In this document: in pieces, positions 156-57,559 of the stretch
Layout: every line of letters starts with the position of its first letter
Numbering within the stretch: position 1 is the stretch's first letter
From: a virus
Strand: one strand, 5' to 3'
Virus record (IMG/VR): IMGVR_UViG_3300046167_000032
Span: 16,375-80,374 of that record
DNA: 64,000 bases
Position numbers and translations under genes: made by a program
Notes under the pieces: generated by a model
The model's input: the letters and a program-made list of their open reading frames with translations, nothing else
What the model was told of the DNA's origin: nothing
Database searches by the model: none

Positions 156-166
156 AGGATGTTTCC

Positions 167-385: not shown

Positions 386-2459
386 TTCCGCTAAATCCTT
401 GTTCTTGTGGTAGAGGTGCTTGTCCTGTACCTATGTTTCCACCACCTGCGCCTGTAGGGTCTGCTGGGTTAGCACCTGCTGGTGCACCTTGCTGATCTGT
501 TGGCTGTTGTGGTTGTTGAAAACCTTTCATGAGTTCAGCTTGAATAGCTGCCTCGTCCATATTGTTAGTAACCTTATCTGGGTCTAACTCAAGAGACTTT
601 GCAATCTCCCGTATAATATACTGAAATTTTGCAAAAGGTGCAAGGGCTGGACTAGAAGAAATTTGCATAAACTGCATTAATCTTTGGCTACGTACTTCAT
701 TAGCCATCAAGCTTTCTGTACCACGAGCCTTAACCTCTAAATCACCTTTGATCTTAGGATCATAATCAAACTGCATATTGAATCTAAATAAGTTCTCACC
801 TAGTGGACGCAATAGGTAGTCATCAATATTCTTGATAACATTCTTAATGCCACCTTGTGCAGCACCCATTAACATACTAATACCAGAAGCGGTACGACCT
901 ACACCTGACACACCTGTCTGACCATGTGCGAAAGATGGAAATCCTGTAGACTCATCTGCAAGGACACGTGCCTTGTCAAAGAGTTGCAAGTTCTCCTGAG
1001 CAACATTAGGAAACTTAGTTCCAAAAATGCTTTGTCCGGGTGCACCACCTTGGCGACGAAAGACTTTGCCGGGATACACGGACATATCCTGTCCCGGTAC
1101 TAAGTTAGTTTCGTCTACCTCTATCAACAAGTTTCCTGATAGTACAGCATTGTCTACAGCCATACGCATGAAACCATTCATTAGTGTTTGTGTATCATCC
1201 ATGTTCTCAGCAATACCTACACCAAAGAAGCTGTAAGGATTGAGTTCGTATGGTACAGCCATGTAAGGGATACGTGCAGGTTTAAACGGATTCATAACCA
1301 TGCGTAGTAGTTTACCATTACAAATCCATACATTAGCTTGTAACTCATCTACATTAGATAATTCATCTGGTATATCTACACCTTGCTCTATCAGCATTTC
1401 GACATCTACCATGCCCCAATACTCTAGTACTTCAAAGCGTTCAATACCATGCTCAGGTGCATAATCAGATAAATCATCTTCCCAATGTTCTTTACTATAG
1501 TTTTCACCTAGTGAGATAGCTTCATCAATTACAGATGAACGGAAGTGTGGTCTACGTTTAAGTGAACGTAACTGTGTCCTTGACATCTTATGACGTTCAA
1601 TAACAAACTGTGCTTCATCCATATTAGTAGCATCAGGATCAGGATAAAAGTTCCATACTGATACGTGAGATACTTGTGGGATTGTTTTCATTACTGGTGA
1701 ATACTCACCATCTTCATCCCAGTTAGGGTATTCTTTATCTACTGCGAATGGTCCTTTCATTACGCCAGTACCAAACAGTGCCATCTCAAATGCTGTACTA
1801 CGTAAATGTTTACTAGCACTAGACTCTTCTAACTGATCATGTATTTTCTTTTGCATCATCTTAGCCGCTATCATAGCAGGGCTAAATGTAACAGATGTAG
1901 GAGTTTTACCTACACCCTCACGGACATTATCAATCTCACCTAATTTATCTTTGAGTGGTCCAATACTATCAAGTAATGTTTTAGCAGTAGCACCTGCAGG
2001 TAAGTCTTTACCATCACCAGCAAAACCATATGGGTTTACTTCTTCGTTTAGTTCTGACTCACGTAATTGCTCAGGTTCTTTAGGATCGAAGTGTACATCA
2101 GATACTACGCCTTCTGGTAGTTCGGTAGGATCAACTGTTAACGGAAACTTCTGCCCAGCAAATAGTACATCTACTATCTGACCATAAGCAGCAAGTGTCT
2201 TAGTTTTAGTTACTTTAATAAATACTCTTGACTTCTCAGCCTCAGTAAACTGTACATCAGGACTATATAAACCACGATAGTTACGATATGCTTGTAACCA
2301 ACGTTGTTCATCTTGTTGTCTGTAGTCATCAGCACGATTGTACTTCTCCATAATAAATGGAATTATCTTTGCTGTATCTGCATCATCAACCGTAGAGTCA
2401 TCAGTATCCTCTAGGATAATTGCATCATCTTCGATAAAGCCTTCGTTTTCTTCTGCCAT
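309..2459 (-). CDS. Portal protein
   Basis: 716 aa directly after terminase large subunit; podovirus portal-like segments (PYELNPYSFFGVG, RSQRLMQF); Gln/Pro/Gly-rich tail. Confidence 0.9.
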   Translation of the reverse strand: MAEENEGFIEDDAIILEDTDDSTVDDADTAKIIPFIMEKYNRADDYRQQDEQRWLQAYRNYRGLYSPDVQFTEAEKSRVFIKVTKTKTLAAYGQIVDVLFAGQKFPLTVDPTELPEGVVSDVHFDPKEPEQLRESELNEEVNPYGFAGDGKDLPAGATAKTLLDSIGPLKDKLGEIDNVREGVGKTPTSVTFSPAMIAAKMMQKKIHDQLEESSASKHLRSTAFEMALFGTGVMKGPFAVDKEYPNWDEDGEYSPVMKTIPQVSHVSVWNFYPDPDATNMDEAQFVIERHKMSRTQLRSLKRRPHFRSSVIDEAISLGENYSKEHWEDDLSDYAPEHGIERFEVLEYWGMVDVEMLIEQGVDIPDELSNVDELQANVWICNGKLLRMVMNPFKPARIPYMAVPYELNPYSFFGVGIAENMDDTQTLMNGFMRMAVDNAVLSGNLLIEVDETNLVPGQDMSVYPGKVFRRQGGAPGQSIFGTKFPNVAQENLQLFDKARVLADESTGFPSFAHGQTGVSGVGRTASGISMLMGAAQGGIKNVIKNIDDYLLRPLGENLFRFNMQFDYDPKIKGDLEVKARGTESLMANEVRSQRLMQFMQISSSPALAPFAKFQYIIREIAKSLELDPDKVTNNMDEAAIQAELMKGFQQPQQPTDQQGAPAGANPADPTGAGGGNIGTGQAPLPQEQGFSGNAEGQGAPEQAQGNGQQPPAMGTVQ

Positions 2460-2469
2460 TTATTTGTCC

Positions 2470-4050
2470 TTAATATCCAAACGTGGAATCTGCTACATTC
2501 ATACCACCTGATGGTCGCCCATTTGGATCATAATCAAATATGCTAAACCGTGGTCTTGACATGATACCATAACGTAATGCATCGTACAAGTGATCTTCTG
2601 AGGTAGTATCTATATCTTCTGGGTTTCTTTTGTCTATGGGTAACGCAGGTAATTGAGCTACCATGTTAGTACATGTATCAAAGAATACTAAGCGTGGTTC
2701 TTCGGTATATTCATCTACCTGTAACCTTCTATGTATCTCATTCTTACCTGCTACACGTGAACCTTTTGATCTATCTGATGGTCGCCATCTGCAACCTCTT
2801 TGAACCATTTGTTCTGCTAGGGAAGGTCCTGTATCACCACGCTTGTGCCATAGTGAGCTATCAAGTACTCCATACTTAATATTACCATCTCCAGCTTCTA
2901 AGTCAAGTACTTGATCAGCTAAATCTGCGGCTAATACTTTACTTACATATAACTCACGATATACTATTAGTTGTTCACTAGGTGATACCGCAAACCATAC
3001 TACACCAGATTTACTACCATATCCATAATCACACGCTCTAAACTTAACCCAGTTACTTGGTATATCGAATGGTTCAATTACGTGTTTAGTTCTATCGAAC
3101 TCAGTAAACGCTGCACCTTCTTTGATATCCCAATCACCTTCTAGTAATTGTCTTCTTTGCTGTTCTGGTAGTGATAGAAGCATTGCTTCGTAATCACCTT
3201 GTTCAGCTAAGTATGGATTATCTGATAATCTTGCAGGTATAAATTTACGTTTGAATAAAGCTTTACCAGCTTTCTCGTGACCTGCAGGGTATCTTAATAC
3301 TTCAGTTGTTTCAATATCAGTAGCATCAAATGATTTATTATGAGGTGCTGGATCAATAAACATCTTCTTAACCCAATGATGACCTCTACCACCGGGGTTA
3401 GTCGTAGCCCTCATGTATACAGGTAAATCACTTGCAGTAGATCGTAAACGTGAGCGCATGTAGTTCCAAGCAAATGGTGTAGGCCACTGTGTAAGTTCGT
3501 CAAAGCCTATCCAACTAAATGCTAAACCTTGGTATCTTAATACATCATCCTCTTTATCTAGGTATGACATCCACAGTCTTGCACCTGATGGTGCTGTCCA
3601 TTGCATCTTACGTTCTGACCATTTGATACCCGGCCATATTTTAGGATACATTTCTTGAGACTTAAATATAAGTTCTCTTAGTTCTTCTGTAGTATGTCTT
3701 AGTAGCAACCCTGAGAATGATGGGTGTCCCATGAAACGTAGTGGATCAGCTAACATAGCATATGATTTACCACCACCAGCACTGCCACCATATAGTACTT
3801 CACGTTCACCTGCGGCAAGGAAGTCAGTCTGTGGTCCAGCATTAGGTTTAAATATTACATTATGCTGTTCTTCAACTTTAGCTAAATCATGATCAACTAA
3901 AACTTTAGGCGGCTCTGGTTTCTTCTGTGTCTTCTTTTTCTTTTGCACCGAGTCTTGTGCGCTCGATTTCTTCCGCTTTGGCGATTGCCTTTTTCGCATA
4001 GTCTGCCCATCTGCGAAGGCTTCCAGCTTTGTTTTTTCTTTGTCGCTCAT
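2470..4050 (-). CDS. terL: Terminase large subunit (true start uncertain, probably downstream of 4050)
   Basis: Walker A YGGSAGGGKS, Walker B IGFDE, coupling motif ATTNPGG, nuclease motifs CDYGY and DHLYDALRY. Confidence 0.95.
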   Translation of the reverse strand: MSDKEKTKLEAFADGQTMRKRQSPKRKKSSAQDSVQKKKKTQKKPEPPKVLVDHDLAKVEEQHNVIFKPNAGPQTDFLAAGEREVLYGGSAGGGKSYAMLADPLRFMGHPSFSGLLLRHTTEELRELIFKSQEMYPKIWPGIKWSERKMQWTAPSGARLWMSYLDKEDDVLRYQGLAFSWIGFDELTQWPTPFAWNYMRSRLRSTASDLPVYMRATTNPGGRGHHWVKKMFIDPAPHNKSFDATDIETTEVLRYPAGHEKAGKALFKRKFIPARLSDNPYLAEQGDYEAMLLSLPEQQRRQLLEGDWDIKEGAAFTEFDRTKHVIEPFDIPSNWVKFRACDYGYGSKSGVVWFAVSPSEQLIVYRELYVSKVLAADLADQVLDLEAGDGNIKYGVLDSSLWHKRGDTGPSLAEQMVQRGCRWRPSDRSKGSRVAGKNEIHRRLQVDEYTEEPRLVFFDTCTNMVAQLPALPIDKRNPEDIDTTSEDHLYDALRYGIMSRPRFSIFDYDPNGRPSGGMNVADSTFGY

Positions 4051-4333
4051 TATCTAACCGTTTCTTTAAACCTACATGAGAAATAGTTCTACCAGTATTT
4101 CTAGTCAACCAGTTAGCAACTTCTCGATATGAATACTGTTTTAAGTATTTCTGTGCTTGCTCAAGCATATCAAGTTCTGCACTGATTGGCAAGAGTATTC
4201 CTTTATCTTTTGGGTCTAATTCATAACCAAAGGGAATTGTTCTTGCTACACGTGGGATTGCTACCCATCTACTATTTTCTTTAAGGTCTGTCGGTTGCGG
4301 TAATTTCCATTTACCTAATGGTTTAGTCATCAT
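3905..4333 (-). CDS. HTH DNA-binding protein, recombinase-domain-like, in packaging operon
   Basis: IPFGY followed by YSYREVANWL...ISHVGLKK helix-turn-helix pattern; between terS and terL. Confidence 0.6.
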   Translation of the reverse strand: MMTKPLGKWKLPQPTDLKENSRWVAIPRVARTIPFGYELDPKDKGILLPISAELDMLEQAQKYLKQYSYREVANWLTRNTGRTISHVGLKKRLDNERQRKNKAGSLRRWADYAKKAIAKAEEIERTRLGAKEKEDTEETRAA

Positions 4334-4697
4334 CTTCCTGTGCTTTTTTAGCTGGCATCAACATAACACCACCCTTAGCTTCTACTTGCATCTTCTCAGT
4401 TTTAACTAAGCCAGTACGATCAAGTAGTTCTTTTGCTGCAGTCATCTTATCACGTATACCTAACTCAGTAGGATCGTATAGTGCACCTACCATAGCCATA
4501 GCCGCTTTAGGTACATTACGTGCTAAGTAGCTGTGAGTAACATCAATGATTTCTTCTTTGAGACTATTCGTTATTTCTGTGTTAGAAGTATTAGCTGAAT
4601 AACCTGCAATGATCTTAGCACTGGTAATATCTCCACCAGCTTCATCCATAAGGACTGCTAAGAACTTCTTCTGTCTATCTGTTAACTCACGTGCCAT
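4323..4697 (-). CDS. terS: Terminase small subunit (start reassigned to MARELT)
   Basis: LTDRQKKFL...AKIIAGYS N-terminal HTH typical of TerS; AAKELLDRTG; position upstream of terL. Confidence 0.75.
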   Translation of the reverse strand: MARELTDRQKKFLAVLMDEAGGDITSAKIIAGYSANTSNTEITNSLKEEIIDVTHSYLARNVPKAAMAMVGALYDPTELGIRDKMTAAKELLDRTGLVKTEKMQVEAKGGVMLMPAKKAQEDDD

Positions 4698-4701
4698 ATT
4701 A

Positions 4702-5214
4702 TTATTCCACCATGTGTAATGCTTGTTCAAGCGTTTCTTTGTTACGCCTAGACCAACCACGTCCAAATGTTTTGTACGTATCTAATCCTTCATAGAACCC
4801 TTGTCTTACTGTATATACATAATCAATAATATACTTAGGGTCTTTCTCCATAACAAGTTGTAGTGTCTTAGGACCAATAGCACCATCTGCTGTAGCACCT
4901 ACTGCACGTTGTATAGCTTTAGCAGGTCTACCACTACCACTATTAACAGCCCAATCGAATGCACACCAATCTACCCCCGATGGAAGTTGATCACCTTTGA
5001 CTCTATCCCAATAGTTCTGTTTATATATTGGGGCTACATCTTCTGGTGTTAAATCACGCATCTCTTCTTCTGTAGACTCACGACCAATCCATTCGTCATA
5101 TACACGTTTAGTTACACCAAGATTAGTCATGCCACCGGGATCACTAGGATGATTAACGTAACCACCCTCGTGTTCCAGTAGCATTTCTAAACATTCATTA
5201 AAATTACTCTTCAT
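4702..5214 (-). CDS. Endolysin, glycoside hydrolase family 108
   Basis: HEGGYVNHPSDPGGMTNLGVT motif; C-terminal FGRGWSRR peptidoglycan-binding segment. Confidence 0.92.
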   Translation of the reverse strand: MKSNFNECLEMLLEHEGGYVNHPSDPGGMTNLGVTKRVYDEWIGRESTEEEMRDLTPEDVAPIYKQNYWDRVKGDQLPSGVDWCAFDWAVNSGSGRPAKAIQRAVGATADGAIGPKTLQLVMEKDPKYIIDYVYTVRQGFYEGLDTYKTFGRGWSRRNKETLEQALHMVE

Positions 5215-5216
5215 TA

Positions 5217-5576
5217 TTATTTTTTCCCACCGAAGAACTTACTTACGCCACGCATACCAATGCTGGCACTAACGATTCCACCTAAAGAGTACTGATACCA
5301 ATCAGGCATAACCTCTAACGCAGTAAAACCTGCTTGTACTATTTCATTACCCCAATCACCACAGAAGGCTAAAATCAAAGGAATGGAAAACAATAAAGTA
5401 ATCCATTCATCTTTCCAGCTATTCTGTGTGGCTTTCATAGCCTCAATATCCCAGTCTATTTCACCTGTGGCTATCTTCATTTTTGTTTCAGCTTCTGCTT
5501 TCTTTACAGCAGTCTTGCCTTCTATAACTGTACCAGCAAGATTAGCTACTTGACCTATTAAGTTTAGTCCTAACAT
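5217..5576 (-). CDS. Holin-like membrane protein
   Basis: SWKDEW motif, two hydrophobic segments, basic C-terminus, adjacent to endolysin. Confidence 0.7.
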   Translation of the reverse strand: MLGLNLIGQVANLAGTVIEGKTAVKKAEAETKMKIATGEIDWDIEAMKATQNSWKDEWITLLFSIPLILAFCGDWGNEIVQAGFTALEVMPDWYQYSLGGIVSASIGMRGVSKFFGGKK

Positions 5577-5905
5577 TATCCGTTGTTACCTTTCACTTCT
5601 TTCTTGCTCATGTTAGTTACTCCGAAGAATACACCAACTATACCAGCTACAGATAAGAAATATATAGAGGCCATAGAGCCAATGATGTCAGCGGCTTGAT
5701 CAGCACCTACAATAGTACATAGCAATACTAGAAATGGATATGCAAGCATACCAACTAAGCAGAACCATGCCATACGTCTTTGTGCATCTCTCTGAGCATC
5801 TTCATCATCGAGTCTACGTCTACGATCTTCTAACGCTAAAGCATCCCACTCAGTCTTGTCTATAGAGCCATTGTTGTCTACATCTACTTCTTCAAAGCTA
5901 GTCAT
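5576..5905 (-). CDS. EF-hand-containing two-TM membrane protein in lysis cassette
   Basis: Canonical 12-residue loop DVDNNGSIDKTE followed by two TM helices. Confidence 0.7.
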   Translation of the reverse strand: MTSFEEVDVDNNGSIDKTEWDALALEDRRRRLDDEDAQRDAQRRMAWFCLVGMLAYPFLVLLCTIVGADQAADIIGSMASIYFLSVAGIVGVFFGVTNMSKKEVKGNNG

Positions 5906-5907
5906 TC

Positions 5908-6165
5908 TTAGACTTTCCTATACCTTTTAGAAGTTTTAGCAGCGCCTTTAGGCTGTTTAGAAAACTGTTTACCAGCTTTAGTATCTTTACGCTTTTTTGC
6001 AGTAGTAGCTGCGTACTGCGAACTAGACATCGCTTTAAGAGCTGCAGCAGGTAAATAACGTTCCCCTGTAGCTTTACTACCTTGAGTCGAAGGTTTTCCA
6101 CTTTTAGTCCCCCACTTTTGACGAGTCCATTTATTAAGACTCTTTTGTGATTTGGAAAGGGCCAT
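5908..6165 (-). CDS. Small highly basic protein
   Basis: 85 aa Lys/Arg-rich, coupled to neighbours, identical in both copies. Confidence 0.75.
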   Translation of the reverse strand: MALSKSQKSLNKWTRQKWGTKSGKPSTQGSKATGERYLPAAALKAMSSSQYAATTAKKRKDTKAGKQFSKQPKGAAKTSKRYRKV

Positions 6166-6350
6166 TATTTATAGCCCCCACCTGCAGCTTTATAGGCTTT
6201 AGCGAGCATCTGTGCTTTACGTGCGGACCATTGATTGGCCTTGCCCCCCTTAGTTCCCCGTTTAATACGTTCAAACAAACGCTTCCGCATAGTAGGCTTA
6301 GTATAATTTCCTGCCTCATTTACCTTTGACTTTGCTTTCGATTTCGCCAC
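6165..6350 (-). CDS. Small highly basic protein
   Basis: 61 aa, QWSARKAQMLAKAYKAAGGGY; TAATG coupling to next gene. Confidence 0.75.
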   Translation of the reverse strand: MAKSKAKSKVNEAGNYTKPTMRKRLFERIKRGTKGGKANQWSARKAQMLAKAYKAAGGGYK

Positions 6351-6459
6351 GAGTAATACCTATATCTCTCAAATCTTTATCAGACATATTATTTAGTAAC
6401 CATAAGTCGGCACTTGCTTGTCTGCTACGCTCTATGCGCTTGAATAATCTTTTAAACAT
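6316..6459 (-). CDS. DUF1127 (YjiS-like) small protein, 47 aa, absent from ORF track
   Basis: Translated by hand: MFKRLFKRIERSRQASADLWLLNNMSDKDLRDIGITRGEIESKVKGK; L-x2-MSD-x2-L-x-DIG-x-TR-x-EI signature; GGAG SD. Confidence 0.85.
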   Translation of the reverse strand: MFKRLFKRIERSRQASADLWLLNNMSDKDLRDIGITRGEIESKVKGK

Positions 6460-6523
6460 TTTAACTATCTCCGTTATGTTAGTAAGGCTTGTTTACCTTA
6501 CAGAGATAGTTATACCATACTTA

Positions 6524-6552
6524 GTTATATCATAATACAGATAATAATGCAA
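6524..6552 (-). promoter_or_regulatory. Sigma70-type promoter TTGCAT-N17-TATAAC upstream of DUF1127
   Basis: Shares TGATATAACTA -10 context with promoters at 21918-21946 and 51050-51077. Confidence 0.6.
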
Positions 6553-6557
6553 CCCCG

Positions 6558-6929
6558 TTATGCATTCCTAGCAGGGTCATAGTATTCTTCTAGTGAAACC
6601 ATTACATCAATTGTGTTAGTAGTCTCACCATATGCTAATAGCTTATCACCAGCGTGCAGGTTAAAGTAACCACCATTAACTAAGTTATCTACAGAGTGAC
6701 CTGCCATACTTAATCCATTAGCTATATAATGATATGCATTATCTTCTTTGTGATAGAATTGTACGTATACCTTTTTAGTTGAGTTACTATTATTACTCAA
6801 GTGTAGATATCGTACTATAGCACTGAAGTTATTAGGGCATGTGTACAACACAGTAGCACTTGCATCTGCAGCAGTAGCGGATACAAGATAACCTTGTGTG
6901 TGAAACTTGGCGTTGTTTAAATTAGCCAT
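6558..6929 (-). CDS. Hypothetical beta-rich protein, possibly virion-associated
   Basis: 123 aa, VLYTCP...LHAGDKL pattern; near-identical in both copies. Confidence 0.7.
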   Translation of the reverse strand: MANLNNAKFHTQGYLVSATAADASATVLYTCPNNFSAIVRYLHLSNNSNSTKKVYVQFYHKEDNAYHYIANGLSMAGHSVDNLVNGGYFNLHAGDKLLAYGETTNTIDVMVSLEEYYDPARNA

Positions 6930-7021
6930 TACTTACCTGCGTCTTGACACTTACCTGTGGCAGAACAGTTAGCTGGTGTAGTACAGCCCTTACATGTTTT
7001 AAATTTACCTGTAGAATACAT
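6929..7021 (-). CDS. 30-aa four-cysteine microprotein, absent from ORF track
   Basis: MYSTGKFKTCKGCTTPANCSATGKCQDAGK; AGGA SD; stop overlaps next start (TAATG); identical in copy 2. Confidence 0.75.
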   Translation of the reverse strand: MYSTGKFKTCKGCTTPANCSATGKCQDAGK

Positions 7022-7035
7022 TTATATTTTTCCTA

Positions 7036-7329
7036 TTACCATTTAACTTTGTGTGACCAGTACTTAGCACTTAGCTTACTAGTCGGTTTACCTTGAGCAT
7101 TATGTCTAGCATAGTAACTCTTCTTACGAGCTTTATCTTTAGCTGATGTAGGATTCTTACCTGCACCACGTACACCCTGTTGTCCAAAGCGAATAAACTT
7201 ATACGTGTCCCCTTCTTTAGCCATCACACAGTGAGACTTCTTAGGGTGACTAGGTGTCCTCTTAGGCTTGTTTACACCCTTGAGTCCTTCCTCTTTCATT
7301 TTATTCTTGACTCGCTCAGGTATTGCCAT
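7036..7329 (-). CDS. Small highly basic protein
   Basis: 97 aa, IRFGQQG...RKKSYYARH...SAKYWSHKVKW. Confidence 0.8.
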   Translation of the reverse strand: MAIPERVKNKMKEEGLKGVNKPKRTPSHPKKSHCVMAKEGDTYKFIRFGQQGVRGAGKNPTSAKDKARKKSYYARHNAQGKPTSKLSAKYWSHKVKW

Positions 7330-7528
7330 CTGTCCAACCTTCTTTTTTCATTGCCCACTCTACGTGTTCTAAAGTAAACTTACGACCATAGTAGGCTTCC
7401 ACTGCAGTTCTTACGTAGAATACATCACTGTGAGGGATATGTAAGTTCTTTAAATTACCATCAAGTAAATGATCGTAGAATTGTTTAAGAACATCGTCTG
7501 TATATAGTTTTACTGATTTCTTTGCCAT
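7316..7528 (-). CDS. Hypothetical protein, first gene of late arm (start MAKKSV)
   Basis: Identical protein in both copies; the track's TTG start is the -35 box of a promoter. Confidence 0.7.
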   Translation of the reverse strand: MAKKSVKLYTDDVLKQFYDHLLDGNLKNLHIPHSDVFYVRTAVEAYYGRKFTLEHVEWAMKKEGWTDGNT

Positions 7529-7534
7529 TGTCAA
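7507..7534 (-). promoter_or_regulatory. Sigma70-type promoter TTGACA-N16-TAAAAC(TA)
   Basis: Direct reading; conserved in copy 2. Confidence 0.55.
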
Positions 7535-7735
7535 TAGTTAATTGCACAAAGTCCTCGCCTAAGAAGGCGATTTCTATGTACGTACATACCTCATTGCTAT
7601 TGCTTATCACTGTACATGTATACTTATATGTTTATATAGTTTAAGTATTATATAATTATAAGTATATATCATAGTACATGTATACTGTACGTGTATCACT
7701 TATAGTGACCCTACCCGGAATATACTATATACATA

Positions 7736-7763
7736 GTTTTACACACTCTGTACCCCATGTCAA
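7736..7763 (-). promoter_or_regulatory. Sigma70-type leftward (late-arm) promoter TTGACA-N16-TAAAAC(TA)
   Basis: Both boxes conserved in copy 2 while the spacer differs. Confidence 0.65.
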
Positions 7764-8267
7764 CCCCTAATCGTACATTGGTAACAAACTGTGATGATAT
7801 TGTAATATATTGTAACATATAGTGATAGTATTTTGTGATCACAAATATACCCTGCACGTATACATAACACCATATCTGTATAGTGGTTAACACTCTCATA
7901 TTTCTGATCTGTGTAATTGTACATATCATACTAACGTACACCCCCCGTATGCCCCCTGCCCACCCTAGCTTGAGGTCGTTTGCGTGCGCCCACAGGCACA
8001 TGTACACGCATGGTGAGAGCATAATGCATAGGCACATACACCACACACGAGGAATATTCCACAATAACAATCACTTATAGTGATATGACAACTGTTATAC
8101 AATCAGTTGCCTTCACATATGGTGCAAGCATAGGCATGCTACGAGCAAGTGACGTGTGTTGCGCAGTTGATGCACATATACACCCACCCATAGGCATGAC
8201 CTACACATCACGTGCATCACACGCTCGGCTGCCTACACGTATACGCATGCGCACTCGCACTGAGAGC

Positions 8268-8298
8268 TGATTCGTTTTGCCCTCCAAAAAGTGATTCG
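8268..8298 (+). promoter_or_regulatory. Two TGATTCG (GANTC-containing, GcrA-type) motifs 24 bp apart
   Basis: TGATTCGTTTT at 8268 and 8292; conserved in copy 2 exactly where upstream divergence ends. Confidence 0.45.
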
Positions 8299-8342
8299 TT
8301 TTTACCCTAACAAGTCCCACATTGGACTTAATTTGCTCCATA

Positions 8343-8410
8343 TACTACTACGTAGTAAAATAGGTGTTGACACCATCGGATTTATCTGATCTAACTGATT
8401 GCATCGAAAC
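8343..8410 (+). promoter_or_regulatory. Early promoter cassette 1: TACTACGTAGTA palindrome, TTGACA, TTATCTGAT, GCATCG
   Basis: Aligns without gaps to 10333-10400 (offset 1990). Confidence 0.75.
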
Positions 8411-8444
8411 GGCGAACTTGCCAAACTCAAAAAGGAAAAATCTT

Positions 8445-9056
8445 ATGACAAATACAAACACAGCTAACACCGACACAAACACAGCAGTACTTGCTACACT
8501 TGAGCTACAAGGTGCTGACATAGCTCGACAATGGAAAGCTATCACCAAAGGTGACAAAGCACGCTTCACTCAGCATACACAAGCCAATGGCTTCGACATG
8601 CAGTTAGGCAAGCTTATGGTTGCACTTTCAGAAGAGTGTGAAGGTCGTATCAAGTCAACTAGACTTGCTGATTGTGGCATCAACATAGTTGATAAGAGAA
8701 GACGTAGCGAAGCTAAATGGTTCGTTGAAAACGAAGTTGAATGCCGTGAGTTTATTGCTAAAAGCAAGAAAGGCTTCACATCACTTACAGCATTGCAAAG
8801 TGCAATGTCAAAAGCCAACAAGCAAGCATCATCTACTGATGATAAAGCGTCAACAGGTAAATCTAGCAAAGCTAGTGCAACACCAACTGAGGCTACTAGC
8901 GAAGCTAAACCTGCAACTAAAGAGACAATCTTTAAAGAGTTGCTTGCCATATGTAAGGCTAGTGATGTGAACATCATGGACATTGCAGAGATGCTTATGC
9001 TTGAAGCAGAAATGCTTACACCAGAAGAATTAGCAGATGAAAAAAAGGTAGCATAA
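8445..9056 (+). CDS. First early protein, helical, possibly DNA-binding (start MTNTNT)
   Basis: AAAGGA SD before ATG 8445; basic KRRRSEAKWF segment loosely like DUF3102-type HTH; Ser/Thr/Ala linker. Confidence 0.75.
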   Translation: MTNTNTANTDTNTAVLATLELQGADIARQWKAITKGDKARFTQHTQANGFDMQLGKLMVALSEECEGRIKSTRLADCGINIVDKRRRSEAKWFVENEVECREFIAKSKKGFTSLTALQSAMSKANKQASSTDDKASTGKSSKASATPTEATSEAKPATKETIFKELLAICKASDVNIMDIAEMLMLEAEMLTPEELADEKKVA

Positions 9057-9065
9057 TATAAGTTT

Positions 9066-9118
9066 ACTTATAGGTTACATCTGGCTCTCTCTCCCTAGCT
9101 AGGTGTAACTTTATAAGT
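9066..9118 (+). other. ~21-bp RNA stem-loop with CU-rich loop
   Basis: Arms 9066-9086 and 9097-9118; all non-Watson-Crick pairs are G-U on + strand, plus one bulge. Confidence 0.7.
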
Positions 9119-9161
9119 TAACTAGTCCAACGTTGGACTTACATATGAAAGGAAATGTCAA

Positions 9162-9296
9162 ATGGCATACAGAACATCAAGGCAACGTAAGCGTCAAGAA
9201 CAGCTACGTGAAGCATTCAAGCACACAGTCATGGGTGCAATGATGGGTTTTATTTTGGGTAGTGCTTTATTTCTACCATTTTTATTGAAAGGTTAA
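9162..9296 (+). CDS. 44-aa membrane microprotein, absent from track
   Basis: MAYRTSRQRKRQEQLREAFKHTVMGAMMGFILGSALFLPFLLKG; GAAAGGA SD. Confidence 0.75.
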   Translation: MAYRTSRQRKRQEQLREAFKHTVMGAMMGFILGSALFLPFLLKG

Positions 9297-9300
9297 TGTT

Positions 9301-9495
9301 ATGTTAATTGAACGTAAATCAATTTATTCTGGCACTATAAGTGCAATGGATATTGATGTAACACCAACGCAGATTAATGCATGGTACTGGCAGGGTGAGC
9401 TTATCCAAAATGCTATGCCTAACATATCTGCACAAGAACGTGAGTTCATTGCTACAGGTATCACACCCACAGAGTGGGACGAAATGTTTAACTAG
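9301..9495 (+). CDS. Hypothetical early protein
   Basis: 64 aa, GELIQNAMP...EREFIATGITP.EWDEMF; SD present. Confidence 0.8.
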   Translation: MLIERKSIYSGTISAMDIDVTPTQINAWYWQGELIQNAMPNISAQEREFIATGITPTEWDEMFN

Positions 9496-9531
9496 TCCAA
9501 TGTTGGACTTATATCTTGAAAGGATATTAAA

Positions 9532-9759
9532 ATGATTAAAGTAATCAATGCTGATAAGGCTGTAACAATTGCGTTTGAAAAAAGAACTAAGTATCTTAAA
9601 GACGTATTAGAACTTGCTATAAGTGAGGGCAGAAATGCTTTGAGTGTTTCATCACACAAAACTAATTCTGTAGATGTGGCACAATTGCGTGAGTATGGCT
9701 ACGATGTTTGGGTAAATCCAGACAATGGTGATGCAGTCATAAGTTGGGGTATTGTATAA
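9532..9759 (+). CDS. Hypothetical early protein
   Basis: GAAAGGA SD after palindrome. Confidence 0.8.
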   Translation: MIKVINADKAVTIAFEKRTKYLKDVLELAISEGRNALSVSSHKTNSVDVAQLREYGYDVWVNPDNGDAVISWGIV

Positions 9760-10091
9760 TGGGTAATCGAGCGACACTTGAAGTAATAAATCAAGACTAT
9801 TCTTGGCAAGAAACACCTTGCTACATATATGTACACTGGTCAGGTAGCCCTGAGACTGTGACTGAACTAGTAAAAGGTGCATCATCTAACATGCGTAAGT
9901 CTGATGTTAACTATGCTACTGCTAGACTAATAGCTCACATATGTAACTATGTGGAGGGTGGTTTGTCTGTAGGTGTACAAAAGAACAAAGAAGATTGGGA
10001 TAATGGACACTATGTCATAGATATGAGTAATGGTAATATCAAGAATGATGATACGCTTATAGCTGAAGGCATACAGTTTGGTAATTTTTAA
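9759..10091 (+). CDS. Hypothetical early protein (start MGNRAT)
   Basis: TAATG coupling; YIYVHWSG motif. Confidence 0.8.
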   Translation: MGNRATLEVINQDYSWQETPCYIYVHWSGSPETVTELVKGASSNMRKSDVNYATARLIAHICNYVEGGLSVGVQKNKEDWDNGHYVIDMSNGNIKNDDTLIAEGIQFGNF

Positions 10092-10131
10092 CTTAGTCCA
10101 ATGTTGGACTTAATATTATGAAAGGATTTAT

Positions 10132-10329
10132 ATGAAATTTAAATTGCATACAAACACACATTACACCATGCCAAAGCCTAGTCGTGCAGATCGTATAGCT
10201 CGGCTGCGAGCACGTATTGAGTTACAGCGTAAGTGTGCTTCACCTGTTGTCGATGTAGTGTATGACAACAAAAATAATGTAGTAGAGTTTGTGAGTGACT
10301 CAGGTTGGAAAACCTACAGCAAATCATAA
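10132..10329 (+). CDS. Hypothetical early protein
   Basis: GAAAGGA SD after palindrome. Confidence 0.7.
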   Translation: MKFKLHTNTHYTMPKPSRADRIARLRARIELQRKCASPVVDVVYDNKNNVVEFVSDSGWKTYSKS

Positions 10330-10332
10330 TAC

Positions 10333-10400
10333 TACTACTACGTAGTAAAATAGTGCTTGACAACAGGTTGGTTATCTGATTTGTTGTTAAGCATCGGAAC
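10333..10400 (+). promoter_or_regulatory. Early promoter cassette 2 (paralogue of 8343-8410)
   Basis: TACTACGTAGTA 10336-10347, TTGACA 10357-10362; 16-bp palindrome follows immediately at 10402. Confidence 0.75.
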
Positions 10401-10440
10401 TAGTCCAACGTTGGACTTCACATAAAAAGGATTACATACA

Positions 10441-10617
10441 ATGAAAAAGAATAACATGTTCAACACTCCTGATTCAGTTGATCAGATACCTGCATTGATA
10501 AAGAACGTAATAAAGTTTATTGAAGCACCTAAAGGTAAAGGTGATACAGTTGAAGCAATAGTTTCAATCATGATGATAAATAATTTTATTGCAGATAACA
10601 ATGGGGATACACAGTAA
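10441..10617 (+). CDS. 58-aa hypothetical protein, absent from track
   Basis: MKKNNMFNTPDSVDQIPALIKNV...; AAAAGGA SD; TAATG coupling to next gene. Confidence 0.7.
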   Translation: MKKNNMFNTPDSVDQIPALIKNVIKFIEAPKGKGDTVEAIVSIMMINNFIADNNGDTQ

Positions 10618-11237
10618 TGTATAGTCGTGATGTAAGAGAAATCAAATCGTTTGTCCGTTGGGGTGGTACAGATGCATTTGTAAACACTGGCCTGTTTGTA
10701 TTGCTAACGATACAAGCAGGTTTATCCACAGTAAAAGGTAGCATGGAAAAAGTAAGCATAGATGGTGTGAAAGCTAATTGCTTATGGGGCAAGAAAGGTG
10801 AAGGTTACAAGTACCTTATCAAGCATGGTGACTACTTACGTGGTGAGATGTACAAGATTGCAGATGCAAAAGGCTACAAAAGTGTTGAAGCTTGTGCTGA
10901 TGTTGTTGAGTTATTTATGCAAGTACCTAACTTGGGTATGGTCAAGGCATCTTTCCTTGCTCAATGCCTAGGTTTCAATGTAGCTTGTATTGATGGACAC
11001 AATGTCAAGCGACTAGGTATCAATCCCAACGCTGTAAAGACACCACCAAAGGCTATGAAGCCAGAGACTGCACGTCGAAAGGTTGAAGAGTACATAGTAC
11101 TTACTCAACGTGCTGGTTCAAAGTATTGGTGGAACACATGGTGCGAGTATGTTGCAGGTAACAAAGCTAATCGTAAGCTTACTACAGGCAATGTCGTATC
11201 TAAATTTCATGTAGAATGTATAACATACGGGAGGTAA
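10617..11237 (+). CDS. HhH-GPD superfamily DNA glycosylase-like protein
   Basis: VPNLGMVKASF...VACIDGHN resembles the helix-hairpin-helix plus catalytic Asp of Ogg2/EndoIII-type enzymes. Confidence 0.6.
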   Translation: MYSRDVREIKSFVRWGGTDAFVNTGLFVLLTIQAGLSTVKGSMEKVSIDGVKANCLWGKKGEGYKYLIKHGDYLRGEMYKIADAKGYKSVEACADVVELFMQVPNLGMVKASFLAQCLGFNVACIDGHNVKRLGINPNAVKTPPKAMKPETARRKVEEYIVLTQRAGSKYWWNTWCEYVAGNKANRKLTTGNVVSKFHVECITYGR

Positions 11238-11256
11238 CATATGAATGCAGTATACT

Positions 11257-11418
11257 ATGAAGAACTTTATTAAGTTCACTAAGTCCAATGTTGGACTAAC
11301 TACTAAGAAGAAGAAGCCTAAGCGTGATGATTGGAAGCGTGAGCGTTCAACAGCACGTAAGATTAAAACTAATATGCAAAGAGGCATAACAGATTACAAA
11401 CCAAAACGTATAGCATAA
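11257..11418 (+). CDS. 53-aa basic protein, absent from track; true start may be 11241 with a 1-nt error
   Basis: MKNFIKFTKSNVGLTTKKKKPKRDDWKRER...; GGAGG SD precedes 11241; palindrome lies inside this CDS. Confidence 0.6.
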   Translation: MKNFIKFTKSNVGLTTKKKKPKRDDWKRERSTARKIKTNMQRGITDYKPKRIA

Positions 11419-11432
11419 GGAGCTAACATAAA

Positions 11433-11759
11433 ATGACTACTATTTCAAAACCACTAGTAAAGAACACTAACCCAGAACTATATGTGAAGCACACAGCACA
11501 CATGTCAAGAGCAGGTATTCATACCTACAACTATGCGTCTGTTGATGATTACATTCTACAGAACTGGAGAGTGTCTACTATAAAACAGATTGCATCTGAC
11601 TTAAACGAATACCCTAATCGTATTGTATATAGGGTACAAGTACTACAATCTGTAGGTTTAATAGGTAGCAAGTACACTACTAAGCGTGCTACATTGAAGA
11701 CACAACAAAAGATGCTTGTCACTTGGTTGGCAGATATCAAACAACAATTGGAGGCGTAA
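11433..11759 (+). CDS. HTH-like hypothetical protein
   Basis: DDYILQNW...TIKQIASDLNE...RIVYRVQVL; AAGGAG SD. Confidence 0.7.
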   Translation: MTTISKPLVKNTNPELYVKHTAHMSRAGIHTYNYASVDDYILQNWRVSTIKQIASDLNEYPNRIVYRVQVLQSVGLIGSKYTTKRATLKTQQKMLVTWLADIKQQLEA

Positions 11760-11764
11760 TAACA

Positions 11765-12004
11765 ATGTCAAATAAAACACAAGCACAGTGGAAAGCTGAA
11801 CGTATGGCTAGGTATAAGGTAAATAAAAAGTTATTGGCTAGTATGTCTAAGGAACAGCGTGAAGCTATCGAAGAAGCTCAAGAGGTTTTGCGTGACACGT
11901 ATTCTATGGCTACAGAAGCGCATGATCTATACATGTCAGACATAGGTAAGATTGAGTCAGCTTGGTATTCACTGAGGTTTGCATTCAAAACTGAGGAAGA
12001 GTAA
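11765..12004 (+). CDS. Hypothetical early protein (start MSNKTQ)
   Basis: GGAGG SD. Confidence 0.75.
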   Translation: MSNKTQAQWKAERMARYKVNKKLLASMSKEQREAIEEAQEVLRDTYSMATEAHDLYMSDIGKIESAWYSLRFAFKTEEE

Positions 12005-12007
12005 CGT

Positions 12008-12244
12008 ATGCCTGTTATGGCATATGAAGTCACGTTAGCCATTGACAGTGAGAATACTATCGTTAAGTTAGATGATACGTATCCTTCTGTAAGTGACTGG
12101 CGTACAGCTTCGGAGTTTGCTATTCATATGATGATGCGTAGCAAACCTGATTCACGAGTTGAGTTTGTCGATTGTAGTGAGAGAGTACATGAGGTATACT
12201 CATCATGGGGATACATAAGTGAAACCCCACCATCAATTCAATAA
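12008..12244 (+). CDS. Hypothetical early protein
   Basis: Contiguous ORF; stop codon overlaps palindrome. Confidence 0.7.
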   Translation: MPVMAYEVTLAIDSENTIVKLDDTYPSVSDWRTASEFAIHMMMRSKPDSRVEFVDCSERVHEVYSSWGYISETPPSIQ

Positions 12245-12280
12245 GTCCAACGTTGGACTAACCATGAAAGGAAATATAAA

Positions 12281-12589
12281 ATGCATTGGGATACATACTT
12301 AGTTGATTTAGATATACCAAAAGAATGGAAGTGTACAAGCCATCATCATGATGAACTACCAAGCTACCAAGTAAATGGTCTACACATATGGATGGGCAGC
12401 CATGATGCAAATGTGCGTGAGGCTGATGCAAAAAACATTTGGGGTACAGATTGGGGTATGTTTACACGTTTCATAGTTCAATTGGCAAGCACCTACAATG
12501 GTGAGTCAGATGATCATGCATGGCTATGTAGTACTGATAGCTTTGAAGAGCTACAACAATTTGTAAAGGAATATAACAATGAAGATTAG
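12281..12589 (+). CDS. Hypothetical early protein
   Basis: GAAAGGA SD after palindrome. Confidence 0.75.
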   Translation: MHWDTYLVDLDIPKEWKCTSHHHDELPSYQVNGLHIWMGSHDANVREADAKNIWGTDWGMFTRFIVQLASTYNGESDDHAWLCSTDSFEELQQFVKEYNNED

Positions 12590-13684
12590 AACACAACTAT
12601 CCTTATGTGATGGCTTATCAGGTGGTCAGATAGCAGGTGATAAGATAGGCTTACGTGCTGATACTTATATAGCTAGTGAGATAGACCCACATGCTATTAA
12701 AATTACACAGAAAAATTATCCTGAACACTGTACAAGTAGGTGATATGACTGAGTGGAGATCATGGGATATTGATTGGTCTAAAGTTGATCTAGTTACAGC
12801 AGGTTTCCCGTGTCAGGCATGGTCAGTTGCAGGTCAACAGAAGGGTGATCGTGATCCACGAGGTCAATTGTTTTGGGTAGTACTAGACATCATGCAACAT
12901 GTGCTAGAGCACAACCCTAATGCTAAGTATCTAATGGAGAATGTTAGAATGTCGAATGCTTTTGAGGAGTACATCACGTATCACACTGAGCAAGCATTGC
13001 CTAATGTAAACAAGTACCTAATCAACAGTGCGCTAGTGTCTGCACAGAATAGGAAACGTTTCTATTGGACTAACATCGAAGGTATTCAACAGCCAGAAGA
13101 CAAAGGTATAGTATTGAAAGATATACTCGAAGGATGGTTTGACTGACAGAACTAAGTCACATTGTCTTGATGCTAACTATTTCAAGGGTGGTAATCTCAA
13201 GTCATACTTCGAGAAGCATCGCAGACAGTTGGTGTTTAGTCCTAGTGGTATGTGCCACGTAGGTGACGCTGATTTGAATGGCAATCAGTCTATCAAGCGT
13301 GTGTATGCAGCCGAAGGTAAAGCACCTACCTTGACTACTATGGGTGGTGGACACAGAGAACCTAAAGTATTGGTGAAGGGTGGACGTATGGTTGGGCGTA
13401 GACTAGATGCTAATGGTACTCGTAAAGACTATGACACATCTATACCAATCAAACAGATGATTGAAGTTAGAGAAGATGATAAAACTAATTGTCTAACTAC
13501 AGTGACTAAGGACAGTATCTTGATTGAGGATATGTCTTGGCGTAAGCTAACACCATTAGAATGTGAACGCTTACAAACAATACCAGATGGGTACACTGAA
13601 GGTGTATCAAACACACAGCGTTACAAGATGCTCGGTAATGGGTGGACTGTAGACGTGATAGCACACATATTGAAAGGGTTATGA
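12579..13684 (+). CDS. DNA cytosine-C5 methyltransferase, broken by two apparent +1 insertions (~12724, ~13130)
   Basis: Motif I variant SLCDGLSGG and SEID from ATG 12579; AGFPCQ, MENV, QNRKR in 12691..13146; RKLTPLECERLQ...LGNGW in 13139..13684. Confidence 0.9.
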
Positions 13685-14286: not shown

Positions 14287-15126
14287 ATGGAGAATAATAT
14301 GACTTATATACCTGATCACCTAGACTTCAAAGTAGCATTTGAACCAACAAAAATGCACGATAAGAAGTACGTTATCAATGAAGATACAGGTGAATACCTT
14401 GGCATTGTGGGTAATACATTCCAGTGTGCAGCACATGGTGATTTCTTTCGTGGTGTAATGGACACTGCTACACAAGAGCTAGGTGCTGATGCATTAGATG
14501 GTGCAGTCAATCAGTTTAGAACAGCACGTAATGGTGCATGGGCTATGCTTGACGTGACACTACCTAACATCAAGACTAAAATTACAACTGACAAAGCTGA
14601 GACTGAGATTGGTAACAGGATCATCAGCTTACATGGTATTGATGGATCATGTAGTAACCAAGTATTCTTTGGTGCTATAGATTTCTTCTGTACTAACGGC
14701 ATGATTACAGGTGATCACGACAAGGTGCGTAAGAAGAACACATCTAACTTTACTATGGATAGTTTTATCTACGAACTAAATCGTGCTCGTACTGACTTCT
14801 TTGATCAAGCTAAGAGGATGCAAGTGTGGGCAGAGACTAGCCTCAAGTTCATCAATGTAAAAGATTTGATTGAGAGTATCATTAGTTCTAAGACTAAGGC
14901 TGAGAAGATGTTCAGCTTGTATAATGCTGAGGCTAGTGTGCGTGGACACAACAAGTTTGCACTGTATTCTGCCTTCACTAACTACGCTAGTTATGCTGAT
15001 GAACGTAATGGTTTCAACCTACGTAACACGGGACATGACACACAAGCTATCAACATGTGGTCACGTGAGCAAGAGGTATCCAAGTGGGTAAGCAGTAATC
15101 AGTTTCGTGTATTGGATGTTGCTTAA
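14287..15126 (+). CDS. DUF932-family protein
   Basis: LGIVG..FQ...H, HGIDGS, FFCTNGMI motifs; TTGACA at 14240 upstream. Confidence 0.75.
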   Translation: MENNMTYIPDHLDFKVAFEPTKMHDKKYVINEDTGEYLGIVGNTFQCAAHGDFFRGVMDTATQELGADALDGAVNQFRTARNGAWAMLDVTLPNIKTKITTDKAETEIGNRIISLHGIDGSCSNQVFFGAIDFFCTNGMITGDHDKVRKKNTSNFTMDSFIYELNRARTDFFDQAKRMQVWAETSLKFINVKDLIESIISSKTKAEKMFSLYNAEASVRGHNKFALYSAFTNYASYADERNGFNLRNTGHDTQAINMWSREQEVSKWVSSNQFRVLDVA

Positions 15127-16248
15127 TGCCTAAGCTACCTAGATATGTACAAGAGAGAGTATCACCTCACGGGGTGATCTCTTACAGATTTAATCCGCCG
15201 CAGAACTTAGTGGATGAGGGTGTGGTATCACGTCAAGAGTATGGCACTGATCTCAAGGAAGTGCGTAGTATTGTGAAGGAGTTGAACGCAGACATTGACC
15301 ATTGGCGTGAACAAAAAGCGACAGTGGTACAGATAAAGCCATCAAGTAAGGTGACAGATTTGATTAACTACTACTATCAATCTAATGATTTCAATATGTT
15401 ACGAGACACAACTAAGGTGGATTACAGATACTTCCTAACCATACTCCATCAGACTATGGGTGGTAAGAAGTACGACAGTGTAACAACTAAGGTTGCCAAG
15501 CAAGCATATGAAGGAGTGGGTTAAGCGTGGTATTAGTTTCGCTAATCATGCTGCAACATGTGCAAGTAGGGTATACAACTACGCTATTGACATGGAACAT
15601 GCCACACAAAATCCTTGGACTAGCATCAAGCGTAAGGCATTGCCACAGCGTAAGGTTGTATGGTCACATGGTGATGTTGTCAGGTTTCTTGATTATTCGT
15701 ACAGCGATTTTGACTACAGGAATGTGGGATTGATTGTGCACATGGCATATGAATGGTGTCAACGTCTAGGTGACATGCGTACACTGAAGTGGGAGAACAT
15801 TGACTTGCGTACACAGCGACTAGAGTTAGAGCAGAGTAAGCGTAGGGCAGATGTATCACTACCAATATCAGATGATCTATGCCACATGCTGAATGAACAG
15901 CGTAATGACTTTGGCTTTCAAGATTATGTAGCACCACACCCACGACCAATGGGCGGTAAGTACCAACCATATGCAATGGAACGTTTGTCTAAGGTAGGTA
16001 GACGTGTCATGAGATTAGCTAAGTTACCAGAAGAGTTACGTCTAATGGACTTACGTAGAACAGGTGTGACACAGATGGTTGATGCAGGTGTACCAATTGG
16101 ACAAGTGATGTCTGTTACTGGACACAATCATGTGTCTTCTGTGCAACCATATATGAAACATACATATGATTCTGCAAATAATGCCTTGACACAGAGAAAT
16201 GTAAGTGTACAATCGAGTGCAGCGAGTAACATAGAAAGTGATACATAA
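15126..16248 (+). CDS. int: Tyrosine integrase/recombinase, one apparent +1 insertion at ~15510
   Basis: Arm- and core-binding part in 15126..15524; catalytic QRLGD, QSKR, DLRRT, TGH and Tyr (QPY) in 15493..16248. Confidence 0.88.
16186..16213 (+). promoter_or_regulatory. Sigma70 promoter TTGACA-N16-TACAAT in integrase 3' end, upstream of replication genes
   Basis: Direct reading. Confidence 0.6.
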
Positions 16249-55245: not shown

Positions 55246-55256
55246 GGGATGTTTCC

Positions 55257-57549: not shown

Positions 57550-57559
57550 TTATTTGTCC

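Follow-up and report, generated by a model that had tools for sequence, protein, structure and literature searches.

An array of short palindromes punctuates the early gene region of a stretch of viral DNA of 64,000 nucleotides (nt; the window), which spans positions 16375–80374 of the 80,374-nt IMG/VR record IMGVR_UViG_3300046167_000032. The array is confined to 8313–12259, about 4 kb, where it accompanies the first early gene, at 8445–9056, whose product of 203 amino acids (aa) we call gp01.

Nucleotides 1–8785 of the window recur at 55091–64000 at 86–100% identity, with drifting offsets and small indels. Because this repeat of the window start drifts and is imperfect, the record holds more than one copy (∼1.45) of a genome of ∼55.2 kb, with two haplotypes joined, and is a two-haplotype concatemer rather than a clean terminal repeat. 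Phages of the HMO-2011 type are recognised by a family A DNA polymerase in which a partial DnaJ CXXCXGXG insert separates the exonuclease and polymerase domains, and by a podovirus genome of ∼55 kb (PMC9038755). Both features are found here, with Pfam domains DNA_pol_A and exo1 accompanied by DnaJ_CXXCXGXG at residues 287–327, and a genome period of ∼55.2 kb. The polymerase is 79% identical to that of CRP-345, 76% to that of CRP-1 and 66% to that of Puniceispirillum phage HMO-2011, and by these comparisons the phage is an HMO-2011-type marine podovirus whose nearest isolates are the Roseobacter phages CRP-345 and CRP-1.

In the sea, phages of the HMO-2011 type belong to the most abundant viruses; to our knowledge, all of their early genes are annotated as hypothetical and no regulation of them has been described. 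Pfam searches of the window also recognised structural and packaging proteins (an SU10-type portal and the large terminase subunit), proteins of replication and nucleotide metabolism (a DnaB-type helicase, class II ribonucleotide reductase, ThyX and endonuclease I), a C5 cytosine methylase and a tyrosine recombinase. The early open reading frames (ORFs) were given no function by Pfam or PHROGs searches, and megablast of window 8000–13000 against GenBank phages returned no match.

Layout of the palindrome array

The window was scanned with the pattern AGTCCAAYGTTGGACT, allowing up to two mismatches, with shuffles as background. Six perfect copies were found (at 9124, 9494, 10095, 10402, 11282 and 12244) together with a one-mismatch copy at 8313 and at 63527, as against 0.07 matches expected from shuffled sequence. 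With the looser pattern GTCC-N6-GGAC, one genome copy gives the same seven places and no others. The initial annotation of this DNA, made from its letters alone, had reported the seven copies and none elsewhere, and this is confirmed; the copy that it also listed at 63527 is present but is not an additional site, since the repeat described above makes 8313 and 63527 one site in two haplotype copies. The palindrome is likewise real, although its 16-bp form as first given is too fixed: the core is GTCCAA-NN-TTGGAC, in which the middle two bases are free (CG, TG, CA, CC or GG in relatives), and positions 1 and 16 differ between lineages. The central CpG is often TG or CA in relatives (87 TG and 37 CA on the coding strand); deamination of methylated C could be the cause.

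The gene, the sites and the predicted elements beside them are as follows, L numbers denoting loci of relatives.

8445–9056, plus strand: gp01, first early gene, proposed site-binding protein of 203 aa (from AlphaFold models and covariation)
8313–8328, no strand: imperfect site AGTCCCACATTGGACT, 15 nt upstream of cassette P1 and 117 nt upstream of the gp01 start (pattern scan)
9124–9139, no strand: perfect site; ATG 9162 lies 22 nt further on; the L108 orthologue is AGTCCGATGTCGGACT
9494–9509, no strand: site with central TG; overlaps stop 9493–9495; ATG 9532 22 nt on; L044 deletion junction
10095–10110, no strand: site with central TG; 3 nt past stop 10089–10091; ATG 10132 21 nt on
10402–10417, no strand: perfect site; 22 nt past cassette P2, in a predicted early transcribed region; ATG 10441 23 nt on
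11282–11297, no strand: site within the small basic ORF 11245–11418, in frame as K-S-N-V-G-L (KSDVGL in L108)
12244–12259, no strand: perfect site, the last of the array; overlaps stop 12242–12244; ATG 12281 21 nt on
63527–63542, no strand: second-haplotype copy of the 8313 site (pattern scan and genome repeat)
8343–8390, plus strand: predicted promoter cassette P1, with palindrome TACTACGTAGTA, TTGACA and TTATCTGAT; the −35 hexamer was read from the sequence
10333–10380, plus strand: predicted promoter cassette P2, a second copy of the 48-nt P1 cassette, 79% identical
9066–9118, plus strand: long hairpin of ∼21 bp without a U-tract, between the gp01 stop and the 9124 site; the minimum free energy of 9050–9165 is −35.9 kcal/mol (z −4.9)

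As first described, five of the sites stand 21–23 nt before an ATG with GAAAGGA or AAAGGA between, three overlap or follow a stop codon, one (10402) comes after the duplicated promoter cassette, and one (11282) lies inside a coding sequence. The ORF around the last of these encodes a very basic protein of 57 aa with the palindrome in frame, and has conserved counterparts in CRP-345, as gp06, in CRP-1, where it is apparently without annotation, and in distant relatives; the site itself is retained in orthologues despite diverged flanks.

Site types and gp01 in relatives

Conservation in relatives, put forward with the initial annotation as a check on the motif, is borne out. An exact motif scan of IMG/VR returned 92 stretches, many from contigs of 54–56 kb with 3–7 clustered copies, and the motif recurs in ∼37 IMG/VR loci as well as in the isolates CRP-345 (six sites) and CRP-1 (at least four). 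The flanks in relatives are often unrelated and the Shine-Dalgarno (SD) sequences vary (AAAGGA, ACGGAG, AAGGAG), yet the GTCCAA-NN-TTGGAC core is fixed. Neither the motif nor any other repeated palindrome was present in the first 5–7 kb of CRP-207, CRP-2, HTVC033P and CRP-3, and no gp01 homologue was found in their first 20–25 kb, which indicates that the system is confined to one subgroup. The main papers on HMO-2011-type phages make no mention of palindromes, promoters or repressors, a literature search for HMO-2011 repressors found nothing relevant, and we found no description of a gp01/palindrome system in the searchable literature.

When the early proteins of the window were mapped onto these loci, gp01 was the sole early gene that always accompanies the motif. 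Loci commonly run from a site and a promoter to gp01, whose linker often holds a site, and on to further sites, a DUF932 gene and the integrase; loci that reach far enough have the DUF932 gene, integrase, primase and helicase downstream. A typical relative carries one imperfect site upstream of gp01, to which the 8313 site corresponds in nearly all relatives, often one in the gp01 linker codons, and three to six downstream. Oriented by gp01, 335 unique sites divide into 59 upstream, 49 inside gp01 and 227 downstream. Those inside the gene are always in the variable linker, where they read S-N-V-G-(L/P/Q), while 162 of the 227 downstream sites (71%) lie no more than 45 nt before an SD and start codon (mode 18–23 nt; 24% for random positions). 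The initial idea that small genes come as palindrome-SD-ORF units is incomplete, given the sites upstream of gp01 and within it.

Isolates also carry palindromes outside this layout. In CRP-345 (L099) there is one within the integrase gene (7079–7092) and one within gp30, downstream of the polymerase (14469–14482), and CRP-1 has one within its integrase gene (L101:6868), so that the integrase-gene copy is conserved in both isolates; the window has a counterpart of neither.

The sites of one phage change type in concert. Relative L108 is 89–93% identical to the window over 7022–9557 and 10617–12283 and has the same flanks; all seven of its orthologous sites read AGTCCG-NNNN-CGGACT, six of them being AGTCCGATGTCGGACT and the upstream one AGTCCGTCATCGGACT, and its gp01 carries T115S/S119K. 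HMO-2011 has AGTCCG(ACAG/CTGT)CGGACT at five places in the same layout, one ∼290 nt upstream of gp74, one just after gp74 and three beyond, with site flanks nearly identical to those of GTCCAA-type relatives. Its gp74 is a divergent gp01 homologue (hhalign probability 99.4%); the HMO-2011 product annotated as 'gp01' (433–1182) was tried as the homologue and rejected (0.2%). Two HMO-2011 ORFs that are unannotated in GenBank (GU557055.1; L100:97–256 and L100:1289–1447) follow palindrome sites, and the latter, which starts MRIRNTINPVA, has counterparts after the orthologous site in many relatives.

A survey of 80 further gp01 loci, and of 16 loci with the HMO-2011 site variant, added a third class, GTCCGA-YR-TCGGAC, and a mixed class. 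Mutual information, computed over 72 distinct gp01 proteins, picks out columns 115, 119, 121 and 122 of gp01 as the most informative on site type; a fifth column also scores high, but its link is trivial, since it is the N/D that the in-gene site itself encodes. T115 goes with A at base 6 in all 43 distinct AA-type proteins, and S115 with K119 goes with G at base 6 in all 13 GA-type proteins. On a gp01 tree built from residues 15–106 only (93 columns, leaving out the helix that holds residues 115–122) the GA type appears in at least six separately supported places, and six of six independent pairs agree (sign test p = 0.031). DUF932 and integrase genes used as covariation controls supplied only 3–4 GA-type sequences, too few to inform. 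A clade with S115 and R119 has mixed A/G half-sites that flip between close relatives, and looks like an intermediate of relaxed, permissive specificity. Most likely, judging by this pattern of natural variation, the site motif and gp01 have switched specificity together several times.

Residue 84 varies with the outer bases, with K84 beside AGT, R84 beside T/C-GT, and S or D84 beside C at position 3. The last combination is that of L176 and L184/L185, whose sites are CCCCAA-NN-TTGGGG; a scan for further CCCC-type examples returned no contig beyond the two known before. Divergent loci, each with its own array in the same layout, add three further site types, which pair with different gp01 residues 83–87: GTCCCAA-YR-TTGGGAC with ASQRR, (C/G)CCCAA-NN-TTGGG(C/G) with PSQRR, and GTCCAAGCTTGGAC with PKQRV. 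The GTCCCAA-type proteins are 27–36% identical to a divergent reference, P0172, over the best tblastn segment, and the related representatives P0187, P0201 and P0228 are 24–26% identical to it by alignment.

Readings of the array

AlphaFold models gp01 as a helical N-domain (residues ∼15–131), a disordered linker (132–155) and a small helical C-domain (159–196), with a pLDDT (predicted local distance difference test score) of 75 for the full protein and 88.8 for the N-domain. Helices 84–95 and 97–106 are followed by the turn SKKGFTS and helix 114–130, and only helices lie ahead of this putative DNA-binding part. The co-varying residues stand at the starts of helices 84–95 and 114–130 (codons K84 8694–8696, T115 8787–8789 and S119 8799–8801), and positions 115, 119 and 122 share one helical face. 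The modelled architecture suggests a dimer.

A profile search of 1.84 billion representative proteins found only 156 gp01 clusters, nearly all of ∼200 aa and none with a Pfam family. A sequence profile search of the PDB gave only a spurious histone match and no solved repressor, and Foldseek against the PDB, with full and N-domain models, gave nothing at E ≤0.001. In BFVD we found a 205-aa relative without a known name (S4S2E1, 33% identical) and weak matches to DUF3102 phage proteins, and a protein atlas fold search also gave a weak DUF3102 match. With VIA-align the best match, albeit weak, is the RK2 protein KorB (1r71_A), at Z 5.3 for the full model (root-mean-square deviation 5.7, 92 residues aligned) and Z 4.0 for the N-domain (3.8, 75 aligned); other weak matches are KorB 8qa8 (4.0), SopB 3mky (3.4), VirB 3vwb (3.0) and TetR-type domains. 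The recurrence of DNA-bound ParB-type domains among these models' matches is a lead and not a family assignment.

The sites are conserved in layout, change in concert and covary with gp01 residues, and from this we infer that the palindromes are duplex-DNA operators bound by gp01, a reading to which we give a probability of about 0.7. Best read, gp01 is a helical, possibly KorB/ParB-like DNA binder of a previously uncharacterised regulator family, and it probably represses early transcription. The palindrome is a real, conserved feature, for which the comparative evidence makes an array of operators of a new phage regulator family the best explanation. The initial annotation had proposed an operator array for a dimeric protein and named two candidates, of which 8445–9056 is backed by the covariation at residues 84, 115 and 119. 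The other, the winged helix-turn-helix-like ORF 11433–11759, was rejected as the binder, being present in only 12 fetched loci and not tied to the motif.

A gp01 dimer would place one subunit on each half-site (A)GTCCAA, with the start of helix 114–130 (T115, S119) reading the inner bases 6–7, the start of helix 84–95 (K84) reading the outer bases 1–3, and the central two bases left unread. The protein would be produced first, from promoter P1, and as it accumulates would fill the perfect sites across or just past early promoters and in short intergenic gaps, where it would block initiation or elongation in the manner of a roadblock or 'stoperator'. Weaker self-control would come from the imperfect site upstream of P1 and, in many relatives, from the one in the linker, and these two together with the 21-bp hairpin would allow gp01 to be expressed while the downstream early genes are silenced. 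The outcome may be shut-off of early genes in lytic growth, or an immunity repressor expressed alone in a lysogen. With sites across or just after promoters and in the intergenic gaps of an operon read in one direction, repression or a roadblock is a likelier role than activation. A promoter-like element, [AG]TGAAA-N16-18-TATACT, is recurrent and ends 5 nt before one orthologous site, which would then span the transcription start; promoter-like matches lie beside 26 of the 227 downstream sites (11.5%) as against 3.8% of random positions. A promoter consensus scan of the window gave matches that are not enriched in the early region.

Discrete specificity types among near-identical phages are the pattern of immunity systems such as the Cluster A stoperators (PMC6550527). 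We consider it possible, though doubtful, that gp01 and its array are the missing immunity system of HMO-2011-type phages, a roadblock array that silences the first-expressed 4 kb and whose types define heteroimmune groups. A lytic early shut-off role is equally open, as no prophage copy was found in species genomes.

Several points weigh against the operator reading. A DNA palindrome and an RNA stem both predict symmetric changes at bases 6 and 11, so that covariation alone cannot separate them, and the placement of most downstream sites just 5' of an SD and start would suit an mRNA element too. Hybrid sites are mostly of the G-U form on the sense strand (15 versus 2), all of them in one clade. 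The sites are physically linked to gp01, and part of the association could be co-inheritance; the covariation tree has only 93 columns, and the residue-84 rule is based on few, possibly related, lineages. The fold matches, at Z 5.3 or less, are below the level that establishes homology, and Pfam searches of 21 gp01 members (E up to 5) and 10 distant members gave only noise, with no ParBc and no helix-turn-helix family. Finally, a search of 185,579 species genomes turned up no gp01 relative and hence no prophage copy, and it is above all the version with a lysogeny repressor that this weakens.

The strongest of the rival explanations, which we regard as unlikely, is that an RNA hairpin (6-bp stem, 4-nt loop) stands 5' of each early cistron and that a protein, possibly gp01, acts there on translation, processing or stability. 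The initial annotation had already graded an mRNA hairpin as less likely, given its loop of 2–4 nt, and the comparative analysis disfavours it too. The nearness of downstream sites to SD and start would suit such an element; some sites begin at a predicted transcription start, which would make the hairpin 5'-terminal; the changes at bases 6 and 11 are compensatory, and the hairpin is predicted in folds of the region. The G-U compatibility of hybrid sites also fits, but that bias comes from the single clade, and at positions 1 and 16 A-C is found on the sense strand 132 times versus 18 for G-T. The arm sequence is fixed within each lineage and not merely paired, and A7/T10 are symmetrically conserved though unable to pair across a 2-nt loop. 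The sites upstream of gp01 have uncompensated mismatches, and yet they switch type; the window copy lies upstream of the promoter cassette and is not expected in a P1 transcript, yet it switches with the others. That uncompensated half-site changes are tolerated there fits DNA half-sites rather than an RNA stem. Sites within gp01, and in the CRP-345 integrase gene and gp30, are not accounted for by a 5' element. An RNase III processing site is a duplex of about two helical turns; the stem of 6–7 bp is too short for that enzyme and has no U-tract, and terminator scoring found only one palindrome site terminator-like. Weighing these points, we favour duplex DNA over RNA as the recognised form by roughly four to one. 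The 21-bp hairpin at 9066–9118, a separate element, would fit an RNase III site better than the palindromes do.

We think it improbable that gp01 and its sites form a ParB/KorB-like system for partition, genome marking or silencing (parS-like sites on the first-entering DNA, as the initial annotation had also suggested), or that a host protein reads the sites. In forming a dispersed cluster of 16-bp palindromes the sites do resemble parS or the OB sites on RK2, ParB-family DNA-binding domains appear repeatedly in the weak fold matches, and the specificity classes are reminiscent of plasmid incompatibility types. However, Pfam detected neither a ParB N-terminal (CTP-binding) domain nor ParA among the gp01 members and window proteins scanned, and the phage has an integrase and not plasmid maintenance genes. 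What survives of the parS-like proposal is the weak fold resemblance. Differing site types in near-identical phages, and a type that follows a phage protein, make a host reader unlikely; moreover, the exact motif gave scattered single matches in species genomes, with no enrichment among the matches listed.

Least probable of all, by a small step, is that the sites are recombination substrates, PeSL-like (promoter early stem-loop) or for a site-specific recombinase, that move small accessory early genes. The early region between sites is highly variable among relatives, a tyrosine recombinase gene is always nearby, L044 lacks window 9526–10082 with its junction inside a palindrome unit, and several gene replacements end at the motif; but many other breakpoints fall at gene starts without the motif (L012/L064 at 9297; the L076 and L044 deletions begin past the SD). 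The cores used by tyrosine recombinases (loxP, FRT, dif, att) have inverted arms around a 6–8-bp overlap, and the spacer of only 2–4 bp between the arms here is too short for their strand exchange. No serine recombinase was present among the proteins scanned, and the sites in and upstream of gp01, the concerted switches and the gp01 covariation would be left unexplained. The cassette-shuffling sites of the initial annotation, and its expectation of breakpoints on the palindromes, thus hold for some junctions in the motif-SD unit and fail for others. Since only some junctions lie in the unit, shuffling is likely a side effect of conserved short repeats, as has been proposed for PeSLs (PMC2839356), rather than what the sites are there for.

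Other features lie near the proposed operator array. The 12-bp palindrome TACTACGTAGTA stands just upstream of TTGACA in both promoter cassettes, occurs elsewhere only in the second genome copy, and may be the site for a second regulator; P1/P2-type cassettes that carry it are found also in L054, L108, L112 and L119. The hairpin at 9066–9118 could limit read-through out of gp01. Between the divergent gene arms, window 6930–8300 is ∼1.4 kb of non-coding DNA at the GC-skew switch; ATAGGCATG/CACGCATG-like words recur in it, and nowhere do the two haplotypes differ more. Directly after the last palindrome, the C5 cytosine DNA methylase is encoded by two ORFs (12691–13146 and 13139–13684), as is the tyrosine integrase, whose two ORFs overlap in different frames (15126–15524 and 15493–16248). 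Both integrase parts share one frame in CRP-345 and L044, and the split in the window is either a frameshift or an assembly error. A T5orf172/MUG113-domain (GIY-YIG-like) protein is encoded at 18703–19233, between the helicase gene and thyX; GIY-YIG-like domains are typical of mobile endonucleases.

Likeness to known systems and significance

A close parallel in layout is with the stoperators of Cluster A mycobacteriophages such as L5, whose repressor (gp71) has copies of its site throughout the transcription units, mostly in short intergenic gaps, besides an operator at the promoter (PMC6550527, PMC9283540). Here too, dispersed sites lie mostly between genes, one stands upstream of the regulator gene in a position for self-control with the others downstream, and motif and regulator diverge together into specificities. 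Stoperators are, however, asymmetric 13-bp sites that act in one orientation, bind a monomeric two-domain repressor and number up to ∼30 genome-wide (PMC9283540, PMC6550527), whereas the present sites are two-fold symmetric palindromes of 14–16 bp in 5–8 copies within ∼4 kb, and the proteins are unrelated in sequence. The Cluster A repressor confers superinfection immunity and blocks elongation.

In lambdoid phages, repressors bind short palindromes as helix-turn-helix dimers with the central bases uncontacted (14 bp in phage 434), and related phages show matched changes of recognition helix and operator. The short palindrome, its free centre and the matched changes in protein and site are shared with these immunity types. 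The lambdoid operators cluster at two promoters, and the repressor and cro genes there are divergent; the present sites run along one co-directional operon, even within the regulator gene, and no second regulator was identified.

KorB of plasmid RK2 (PDB 1r71; PMC11790492) recognises the OB palindrome in about a dozen dispersed copies, at promoters, far from them or within genes, which is similar to the array here. Multiple palindromic sites of 13–16 bp on a replicon are a feature of the ParB/KorB family and are present in this phage; KorB is, as gp01 is proposed to be, a self-regulating regulator in an early control operon, and its DNA-binding domain is the best, though weak, structural match to gp01 (Z 4.0–5.3). 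It differs in having a ParB CTPase domain, a sliding clamp and the partners KorA, TrbA and IncC, none of which were found here, gp01 being a protein of ∼200 aa with a disordered linker. For the chromosomal proteins ParB and Noc (parS and NBS, the Noc-binding site) it has been shown by experiment that a few recognition-helix residues switch the specificity for a 16-bp palindrome through permissive intermediates. The S115+R119 clade with its mixed sites resembles such an intermediate; the ParB/Noc proteins have a CTPase domain and their case is experimental, and that of gp01 is built on natural variation.

PeSLs of T4-type phages consist of an early promoter and a stem-loop, described as a terminator, that flank variable genes (PMC2839356, PMC4122927). 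They share with the present sites a short promoter-palindrome unit beside small orphan early genes and some gain or loss junctions inside it. The present sites have no U-tract, stand in many cases without a promoter and covary with gp01; PeSLs are not tied to a co-varying protein.

The operator reading gives the first early gene of HMO-2011-type phages a testable function, together with a proposed DNA code in which residues 115 and 119 would read base 6 and residue 84 bases 1–3. The natural series of specificity switches, with its apparent relaxed intermediate, offers a useful case of a regulator and its many scattered sites changing in step. In practice, contigs of such phages can be oriented, and their early region located, by scanning for the palindrome. 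Should the system govern immunity, or cross-regulation when phages co-infect, interaction groups could be told apart in metagenomes simply by site type, and the types AA, GA, HMO-2011, CCCC and GTCCC would decide which co-occurring marine phages can superinfect the same cell.

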